Shown here: positions 1-937 of the stretch, piece after piece
Layout: the number at the start of each line of letters is the position of its first letter
Numbering within the stretch: position 1 is the first letter of the stretch
Made by a program: the position numbers and the translations under genes
Source of the DNA: Candidatus Sericytochromatia bacterium
Lineage (GTDB): Bacteria > Cyanobacteriota > Sericytochromatia > S15B-MN24 > UBA4093
DNA length: 64,000 nt
Reading direction: 5' to 3'
Assembly (NCBI GenBank): GCA_036676985.1
Contig: JAKFBU010000026.1
Span: 128,001-192,000 of the forward strand
Notes under the pieces: model-generated
What the model saw: the letters and a program-made list of their open reading frames with translations, nothing else
What the model was told of the DNA's origin: nothing
The model's database searches: none

Positions 1-67
1 CGAAAGCCGGGGTCCAGGGCATGCGCCCCGTGAGCCGACCCTGGATCCCGGCTTTCGCCGGGATGAC
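1..67. repeat. REP/REPIN-like inverted repeat (truncated at window edge)
   Basis: Arm 1-19 CGAAAGCCGGGGTCCAGGG pairs 18/19 with 39-57. The right arm contains the hairpin TCCCGGC-TTTC-GCCGGGA followed by TGAC, as in the GTCATCCCGGCGAAAGCCGGG-type REP family. Confidence 0.7.
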
Positions 68-111: not shown

Positions 112-777
112 CTAAAAGAGGCGCAGCTGTTGCGGAGCTGTGGCGCGCGCGGCCGTCGGCCGTGGAGCCGCCGGCTCTTTGGCTACCGATCTTTCGAGCA
201 GGGGCTTTGCGGGCGGTTCGGTGGCAGGAGCTGCGAACAGGGGCTCGTTCACCGGCTCGGCCGCGCTGCTCGCGAGCTGGAAGTGCCGCTGGGCGACCTG
301 CCGCTGGTGCCGGAAGTCCGGCATGTGCGTGCCGACCAGTGCCCAGAAGGCCTTGGAGTGGTTGGGCACGAGGAGGTGGCTCAGCTCGTGCAGGATGAGG
401 TAGCGCAGGGCGCGCTCGGGCATCCCGTCGATGGCGTACTTCGAGAAGGTGAGAATCTTGGTCTTGAGGTTGACCTGCGCGAGCCGGGTGTAGCGGGCCT
501 GTCCGATGCGCACGCCGGCGTAGGAGACGTTCAGCGTCTCGCGGTTGACCCGGGCGACGAGCTCCGTGAGCTCGGAGAGGCTCATGGCCGGACCCTGGGG
601 CAGGGCGGGCAAGGCGGCGAGGGTCGCGGTCTGCTTGTGGCCCCAGCGCGTGAACTTGGCGATCGCCTCTTGCTGCTCCGAGCGCGGCCAGTGCCGTGGA
701 ATGGTCATCACCAGGCACGAACCTCGGAGACGAGCCCTTGCCGTGCGACCTGTGGTGTAGGTGATCTGCGTCTCCAC
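112..777 (-). CDS. YgjP/DUF45 (SprT/WLM-like) HEXXH zinc metallopeptidase-family protein with C-terminal QLRLF motif
   Basis: YLILHELSHLLVPNHSKAFWALV motif; GTG start with GAGGAGG RBS; Pro/Ala-rich tail. Confidence 0.85.
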   Translation of the reverse strand: METQITYTTGRTARARLRGSCLVMTIPRHWPRSEQQEAIAKFTRWGHKQTATLAALPALPQGPAMSLSELTELVARVNRETLNVSYAGVRIGQARYTRLAQVNLKTKILTFSKYAIDGMPERALRYLILHELSHLLVPNHSKAFWALVGTHMPDFRHQRQVAQRHFQLASSAAEPVNEPLFAAPATEPPAKPLLERSVAKEPAAPRPTAARATAPQQLRLF

Positions 778-937
778 GGCGTCCCTCCTCGATCCTCCGT
801 GATTGTACCACAGTCGTTTTGGCGTCCGTACGACCTCCTAGCCCGCCGATCCTTTTTGGTCGATTCTGCCAAGGCGCCTAAGACAACATGGCCTTACGAT
901 GGGAAGGTCCCATTCTCATGCGAAGGAGCGCCACTGG

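Follow-up and report, generated by a model that had tools for sequence, protein, structure and literature searches.

The protease SPRTN carries a PIP (PCNA-interacting peptide) box that binds the sliding clamp PCNA, and eukaryotic HMCES has a PCNA-binding tail. In bacteria, the sliding clamp is DnaN (the beta clamp), a dimer with two peptide pockets, whose clients include the DNA polymerases Pol II, Pol III alpha, Pol IV and Pol V as well as MutS, MutL, Hda and delta. The clamp-binding consensus was reportedly given by Dalrymple in 2001 as QL[SD]LF or QxxLxF. We know of no peptidase or zincin among these clients, and bacteria are not known to have a dedicated, replication-coupled crosslink protease. 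Here, a stretch of 64,000 nucleotides from a Candidatus Sericytochromatia bacterium (GenBank assembly GCA_036676985.1, contig JAKFBU010000026.1, positions 128,001 to 192,000), referred to below in its whole length as the window, was analysed. Close to its beginning lies a gene for a YgjP-like zincin whose disordered tail ends exactly in the peptide QLRLF. This tail probably binds DnaN, which would make the zincin a genuine clamp client. More tentatively, the clamp-tethered enzyme may degrade proteins that are bound to DNA.

A reading made earlier from the letters of the DNA (the sequence-only reading) had described a zincin core followed by a Pro/Ala-rich linker and a terminal QQLRLF with the stop codon directly behind it. 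The open reading frame, the HExxHx5H site, the disordered tail and the terminal QLRLF were all recovered in the present analysis. The QLRLF core occupies residues 217–221 at the exact C-terminus (...APQQLRLF, then TAG), and it agrees with the beta-clamp consensus (QL[SD]LF / Qxx[LM]xF). An AlphaFold2 model was built from an alignment of 29 orthologues, with a mean predicted local distance difference test (pLDDT) of 87 and a predicted template modelling score of 0.72. In this model, blocks of 10 residues average pLDDT 84–99 over residues 1–170 and 52–60 over residues 181–221, the latter values indicating disorder. The tail is rich in Pro and Ala (a fraction of 0.45 in this zincin), and its length ranges from 24 to 82 residues among the orthologues.

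The terminal motif was conserved well beyond this one protein. In the 29-orthologue alignment, the domain and the five columns of the motif have mean pairwise identities of 0.57 and 0.60, whereas that of the linker is 0.14. Among 58 distinct close homologues from the protein database, the strict motif Q[LM]x[LM]F is found within 20 residues of the C-terminus in 38 and is exactly terminal in 25. A PFGxL[FY]xF tail, typically HPFGPLFAF plus about four residues, is present in 17 of the 58, QLSFF in one, and a tail devoid of such a motif in two. A second tally was made of 26 orthologous loci read directly from the genomes of relatives. Sixteen of these loci encode the strict motif, six the HPFG-type motif and one QLSLW, and at one locus the tail is truncated by the end of the contig. 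The sequence-only reading had staked itself on the terminal motif being conserved while the linker diverges; because this is the pattern that was found, the structural half of the reading survived its own refutation test.

The motif was also counted in more distant proteins. A profile search of 1.84 billion representatives returned 100 proteins at E <= 1e-30, and with the addition of the next row (P0160) 101 were tallied. The strict motif is carried by 19 of these and the HPFG type by three. A looser pattern occurs in 14, about nine of which are near-terminal Q-type variants such as QLLLW and QLRFF, the rest being chance-looking. Among the 65 proteins with neither motif are short forms and members of a distinct, acidic-tailed branch. 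Among classical YgjP-like representatives (about 240 residues), the motif was found in one of 40, at a non-terminal position, which suggests that the clamp-type hook is a property of this subfamily and not of the YgjP superfamily.

A sister branch (P0119–P0155) consists of short YgjP-like zincins that lack the N-terminal unit and have long acidic tails. A peptide of the form G-[IV]-x-x-G-G-[SD] recurs in these tails (e.g. GIVCGGS, GIISGG, GTMSGGDE) and matches no linear motif known to us.

Binding of the tail to the clamp of the same organism was modelled, as the sequence-only reading had proposed. The host DnaN (366 residues, 19-orthologue alignment) was co-folded with zincin residues 176–221 (29-row alignment). 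The co-fold scored 0.65 (runs of 0.64, 0.67 and 0.65), and the highest-scoring of 3 controls reached 0.37. Of 80 solved complexes, 58 attain the mark used for a pass, as do 2 of 110 mismatched pairs. At least 97% of the contacts are shared between the runs. On the zincin side, the confident interface is restricted to residues 214–221. On the DnaN side, it comprises residues 172, 174–177, 241, 243, 246, 277–278, 280, 318, 320, 344, 346, 360 and 362–366, of which eight (T172, G174, R176, L177, P241, N320, M362 and P363) are identical in all 19 DnaN orthologues. The interface residues presumably correspond to the peptide cleft of E. coli beta between domains II and III. The co-fold supports binding, short of demonstrating it, with the QLRLF tip modelled in the canonical domain II/III cleft of DnaN.

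A second short motif, EPLFAAP, lies directly after the catalytic domain. The same site reads [PST]L[FL]xxxP in relatives, and P0018–P0020 have EQLGLF there; P0084 has QINLF in addition to a terminal QLKLF. EPLFAAP is outside the confident DnaN interface, though it was within the co-folded piece. It could be a second, weaker clamp contact, which is conceivable because the clamp dimer has two pockets.

The motif is rare in the genome to which the window belongs (G000). Its stop-to-stop frames of at least 100 residues (20,956 frames, 5.4 million residues) contain 38 instances of Q[LM]x[LM]F. Three frames end exactly in the motif, against about 0.15 expected, and nine have it within the last 20 residues. 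These nine are the present zincin, MutS, an SRAP protein, an RNase_T exonuclease and five frames that have no Pfam match. MutS is an established, textbook clamp client, and in this genome it has QLPLF near its C-terminus.

The SRAP/YedK-like protein (L032, G000:C23:116497-117186, plus strand; PF02586, E 4e-70) ends in GQLSLF. At 18 of 23 SRAP loci in relatives the protein ends in [QE]xxLF, with variants such as QLSLF, ELRLF, QPRLF, QLGLF and QTSLFDA; four loci have no such tail and one frame could not be assigned. By analogy, a QxxLF tail on SRAP would be the bacterial counterpart of the tail with which HMCES binds PCNA. No description of a clamp tail on a YedK-type protein was found in the open-access literature, and a clamp is not mentioned in the main text of PMC3765255. 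The RNase_T/DnaQ-like exonuclease (L039, G000:C75:14075-14683, minus strand), a protein of about 200 residues, ends in QMSLFG, and all eight exonuclease loci of the window's own family, that of G000 included, end in QM[SG]LFG. Since the motif is present on MutS, SRAP and the exonuclease and is conserved on the orthologues of the latter two, a C-terminal QxxLF appears to mark DNA-repair proteins in this lineage.

Further frames with the motif were of mixed quality. The codon-position GC (guanine plus cytosine) content of L035, L037 and L038 is like that of a wrong reading frame, with the last approximately 110 residues of L037 being protein-like. L034 and L036 look like genuine small proteins, and the codon-position GC of L036 is gene-like. 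L036 (G000:C38:5209-5520) ends in DQLRLF, L034 (G000:C27:124228-124842) in RQLSLFDVG and L037 (G000:C41:77703-79106) in HQLSLFPS. To judge by these endings, L034, L036 and the end of L037 are possible further, uncharacterised clamp clients.

The catalytic domain belongs to the YgjP-like family. Residues 69–161 match PF01863 with 62.9 bits, against a Pfam cut-off of 26 (E 5.6e-17), and cover profile positions 115–203 of 207. The score for PhageMetallopep is under its Pfam cut-off, no NCBIfam family was found for the zincin, and one PHROGs family, of unknown function, matches with an E value of 3.2e-5. The zinc site string LHELSHLLVPNHSKAFW holds HExxHx5H (H130, E131, H134, H140), the spacing of which we take to be Wss1-like. 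The HExxH site and the NHS..FW segment are found together in the string HELSHLLVPNHSKAFW. All four site residues are invariant across the 29 aligned orthologues, and in 26 classical members these columns do not vary either. When the subfamily was compared with these 26 classical YgjP-like proteins by hhalign, a probability of 99.9 was obtained (E 5.5e-37, 165 columns, 32% identity). Query residues 5–172 were aligned with template positions 13–239 with a single deletion of about 60 columns; thus, the N-terminal half is also homologous.

Among solved structures, a profile search identified projannalysin (E 8.4e-7) and proabylysin (2.6e-6), with a weak match to Wss1b (0.12). Foldseek placed abylysin, selecase and jannalysin on top (E 3e-5 to 8e-4; 3.3e-5 for 4jiu), followed by IrrE (7e-3), Wss1 (0.029) and SPRTN (0.057). 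A second structure search, independent of Foldseek, gave Z values of 12.9 for selecase (4qhf), 12.8 for abylysin (4jiu) and 12.0 for jannalysin (4jix). Lower values were obtained for SPRTN (6mdx; Z 8.7, root-mean-square deviation 3.7, 106 residues aligned), Ste24 (8.1), Wss1 (5xbn; Z 7.1, 92 residues aligned), 5ln5 (6.9) and YbeY (6.5). The values for SPRTN and Wss1 are far under those of the minigluzincins (Z 12–13) and inside the range general among zincins. The structural neighbours with Z >= 8 are peptidases without exception, so that the modelled fold favours, though it does not prove, a peptidase chemistry.

The domain is also very basic. In this protein it has an isoelectric point (pI) of 10.9 and a net charge of +13; over the 29 orthologues, the medians for this domain of about 172 residues are pI 11.0 and net charge +13, compared with a median pI of 9.9 among classical members. 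Such a domain fits closeness to nucleic acid.

Taken as a mechanism, the tail would tether the enzyme to sliding clamps at replication forks and on newly copied or repaired DNA. The zincin, held beside the DNA, would then function as a peptidase whose targets are proteins trapped at that site. Candidate substrates would be DNA-protein crosslinks, possibly including abasic-site adducts of the SRAP/YedK-like protein, which has the same hook in this lineage. The enzyme would be a functional analogue of the SPRTN-PCNA pair and not a family-level homologue. The last step in particular, proteolysis of DNA-bound proteins, is inferred, and for the whole chain from docking to proteolysis doubt slightly outweighs belief.

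A replisome-tethered crosslink protease analogous to SPRTN and Wss1 had already been suggested in the sequence-only reading, which called the protein YgjP/SprT/WLM-like. The peptidase-like fold, the presence of SPRTN and Wss1 among the structural neighbours and the basic domain speak for that suggestion, and the assignment to YgjP was borne out. Other observations weigh against it, beginning with the remainder of the family assignment, which did not hold: the scores for SprT-like PF10263 (18.9 bits, cut-off 25.6) and WLM PF08325 (14.7 bits, cut-off 26) are both under their Pfam cut-offs. We know of no PF01863 member for which peptidase activity has been demonstrated. No repair genes recur near the zincin at 41 orthologous loci, as judged by flank clustering and a Pfam scan; the gene stands alone, and its only recurrent neighbours encode a GT2 glycosyltransferase, a thioredoxin and a peptidoglycan-binding-domain protein. 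A LexA-type box (GAAC-N4-GTTC) is absent from positions 778-898, with one mismatch allowed. The PADLOC defence models matched neither the zincin nor two classical YgjP-like members, and fused or longer forms were not found among proteins of 388-2000 residues, which is weak evidence. No RNA runs are among the 23 sequencing runs returned for this DNA. As to the tail, two of the 26 genome loci have no motif, one being a short form (G010) and the other having a tail devoid of the motif (G015). In the co-fold, the partner's own pLDDT is low (43–45; at least 42) and one control itself scored 0.37.

The co-fold was passed with a clear score over its control, but the pass may reflect memory of solved clamp-peptide complexes, because such complexes have been solved many times. 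This is one of the points in favour of a different partner altogether, such as an adaptor, a chaperone or a degradation signal, for which the likeness of the terminal peptide to QLxLF would be coincidental. Another is that position 3 of the motif is Arg or Lys and not the Ser or Asp of the textbook consensus. A third is that about 30% of the homologues have HPFGPLF[AS]F in place of QLxLF, which has no Gln and leaves the clamp consensus. The HPFG-type orthologues among the genome loci come from one family of genomes (f3: L015, L016, L018, L021, L025 and L027), 17 database proteins (e.g. P0041–P0058) are of the same type, in all of these the peptide is strongly conserved, and the SRAP proteins of the f3 genomes retain QPRLF or QLKLF while the zincin there has the HPFG type. 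HPFGPLF[AS]F could be a diverged form of the hook in which the Leu-Phe anchor is retained, or the partner may have changed. A different partner for the terminal peptide is nevertheless quite improbable, given that the same motif is found on MutS, SRAP and the exonuclease of the same genome, that it is as rare as the three terminal cases among 20,956 frames indicate, and that the modelled contacts are exactly the conserved residues of the cleft.

Docking on the clamp could also serve another chemistry or another substrate. A clamp-tethered nucleotide hydrolase, the alternative already offered in the sequence-only reading, would act on non-canonical nucleotides or ribonucleotides, its tail concentrating the sanitising activity at the fork. 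The whole-length homology to classical YgjP-like proteins and the shared HELxHLxxxNHSxxFW core point in this direction, as does the annotation of E. coli YgjP as a uridine triphosphate (UTP) pyrophosphatase, which likewise counts against a peptidase. The nearest solved folds are, however, the peptidases described above, and the subfamily has lost two features of the classical branch, a middle insert (about 60 residues) and the signature RWGSC, so the two need not share a chemistry. Since free nucleotides diffuse, clamp tethering would also be of little obvious benefit to such an enzyme, and there is only a slim probability that the zincin is one. A clamp-docked regulatory peptidase would share all of the clamp-hook evidence, from the co-fold to the conservation of the motif, with the crosslink protease. 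It would cleave other clamp clients or the clamp itself and not covalent crosslinks, for example by removing polymerases, SRAP or MutS that remain on clamps, or by recycling abandoned clamps. Several repair proteins of the genome have the same hook, the zincin gene looks like a constitutive core gene with no SOS box, and because the clamp dimer has two pockets a docked peptidase would adjoin the occupant of the other pocket. Against this, the substrate is purely conjectural, and the very basic domain suggests contact with DNA over the acidic surfaces of the clamp; a regulatory role of this kind is considered unlikely. The clamp-tethered protease acting on DNA-bound proteins is retained as the preferred, tentative explanation.

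A broader proposal can be built on the crosslink protease, although it is doubtful in its entirety. In Sericytochromatia and some Vampirovibrionia, replication-coupled protein removal might have converged on the logic of PCNA, with the YgjP zincin in the role of SPRTN and SRAP/YedK in that of HMCES. Both would be docked on the clamp via a C-terminal QxxLF, and the zincin would clear crosslinks at the fork, including SRAP-abasic adducts. By extension, YgjP/COG1451 proteins would be DNA-associated peptidases and not nucleotide pyrophosphatases.

In the open-access literature, supplements and subscription papers aside, no report was found of a YgjP protein, metalloprotease or peptidase joined to a clamp-binding motif, and the sequence-only reading likewise knew of no description of this architecture in bacteria. 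A bacterial replication-coupled crosslink protease was likewise not found in the accessible portions of the same literature. According to a 2018 review (PMC6219452), work on bacteria and yeast gave rise to a long-held assumption that crosslink repair depends on nucleotide excision repair and recombination. A zincin with a conserved clamp hook is a concrete, testable candidate for a bacterial replication-coupled crosslink protease. What is new is the joining of two known kinds of protein, clamp clients and YgjP-like zincins. If the proposal is true, it would provide a first way into the function of one branch of the widespread YgjP-like (COG1451) superfamily, and a peptidase would join the clamp clients, beside the conserved clamp hook on SRAP/YedK-like proteins.

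Sericytochromatia are non-photosynthetic Cyanobacteriota. The distribution of the subfamily was determined across 301 sampled genomes of the phylum, with the subfamily called at E <= 1e-25. It was found in 27, namely G000, 25 of the 26 others of its order and the sole genome of family f5, and in none of the 273 remaining genomes searched at that threshold. The only miss within the order is G026, a genome that is 64% complete. One zincin copy was found per genome with this query. With 25 of 26 order genomes positive and one copy in each, the zincin appears, from its distribution, to be a lineage-specific core gene of this Sericytochromatia order. One tail-bearing 50%-identity representative is labelled Vampirovibrionales. 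The DNA occurs in soil, groundwater and rhizosphere metagenomes.

Upstream of the zincin gene lies a divergent gene for the GT2 glycosyltransferase, followed by that for thioredoxin, and downstream lies the convergent peptidoglycan-binding-domain gene. In G003 (L121, C26:70000-80000), the zincin and SRAP genes diverge and are 2.2 kb apart. This proximity is taken as chance, since a gene for an M14 carboxypeptidase intervenes and no other genome was seen to have this arrangement. By eye, GAAC-N4-GTTC-like (Cheo-type) boxes can be recognised in front of two lexA-like genes and the second recA-like gene of G000; in the whole window, 13 matches to GAAC-N4-GTTC were counted against 17.2 expected. 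G000 has three LexA_DNA_bind matches (L116, L117, L118) and two long RecA matches (L119, L120). Some of these lexA and recA copies may be foreign, because contamination of the assembly is given as 5.09%.

The coordinates of the zincin gene and its parts are collected in the table. The annotated GTG start is sound, because it is preceded by a Shine-Dalgarno-like site, with GAGGAGG at a distance of 6 nucleotides by sequence inspection, and because the N-terminus METQITY... is kept among the orthologues in the 29-row alignment. A promoter scan upstream of the gene identified no consensus sigma-70 site; an extended -10-like string, TGGTACAAT, is seen at 802-810 by eye only. A terminator scan gave one hairpin (140-124, minus strand), which lies within the last codons and does not stand out from the shuffle expectation of 0.5. 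A 55-bp imperfect palindrome, GAAAGCCGGGGTCCAGGG...CCCTGGATCCCGGCTTTC, occupies window positions 2-56 between the two convergent genes. Three copies of it are present in the genome (C26, C38, C76), and it fits a REP (repetitive extragenic palindromic)-like element.

Table. Positions of the zincin gene and its features in the window.
Feature	Position	Strand	Remarks
YgjP-like zincin coding sequence	112..777	-	221 residues; GTG start 775-777; TAG stop 112-114
Folded catalytic domain, residues 1-172	262..777	-	three-stranded N-terminal sheet and long helix, then zincin core
Zinc-binding/catalytic motif HELSHLLVPNH (H130, E131, H134, H140)	358..390	-	HExxHx5H
Disordered Pro/Ala-rich linker, residues 173-213	139..261	-	low pLDDT, divergent
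Short motif EPLFAAP, residues 178-184	226..246	-	directly after domain; from alignment of orthologues and tails
Clamp-binding-type peptide APQQLRLF, residues 214-221	115..138	-	core QLRLF 115-129; stop codon adjoins
Shine-Dalgarno-like GAGGAGG (784-790) and GGAGG (794-798)	784..798	-	upstream of GTG; read from sequence

Among solved structures, the minigluzincins and selecase (4jiu, 4jix, 4qhf), which are minimal archaeal zincin peptidases, are the best matches to the zincin in both sequence and fold. They superimpose on model residues 63–172 with a root-mean-square deviation of 2.1–2.3 over 99–105 residues at 16–22% identity. Unlike the zincin, they are stand-alone proteins of about 105–112 residues that have neither an N-terminal sheet-helix unit nor a clamp-type tail. 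The classical YgjP-like (COG1451) proteins, represented by E. coli YgjP, share with the zincin the N-terminal strand-helix unit and the HELxHLxxxNHSxxFWxxV core. The zincin differs from them in the absence of about 60 residues of the classical middle insert. The near-invariant classical RWGSC (W170, G171 and C173 in the classical alignment) is replaced by RLAQV. The zincin also adds the disordered tail and the terminal clamp-type motif, whereas classical tails are of at most 15 residues in 29 of 40 representatives.

Beta-clamp clients, like the zincin, have Q-L-x-L-F at a disordered terminus, and the zincin peptide is modelled in the cleft that theirs occupy; the zincin subfamily departs from them in having Arg, Lys or Ser at position 3. 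SPRTN and Wss1 likewise have a small zincin core and are structural neighbours of the zincin. In architecture, the zincin and these proteases are alike in combining a protease core with a disordered region and a short peptide for binding the sliding clamp, the peptide of the zincin being predicted. In contrast to SPRTN and Wss1, the zincin falls outside the SprT-like and WLM families by Pfam score and lacks SHP, UBZ and SIM modules as well as any zinc-binding or basic DNA-binding subdomain. The clamp itself would also differ, being the bacterial DnaN for the zincin and PCNA for SPRTN.

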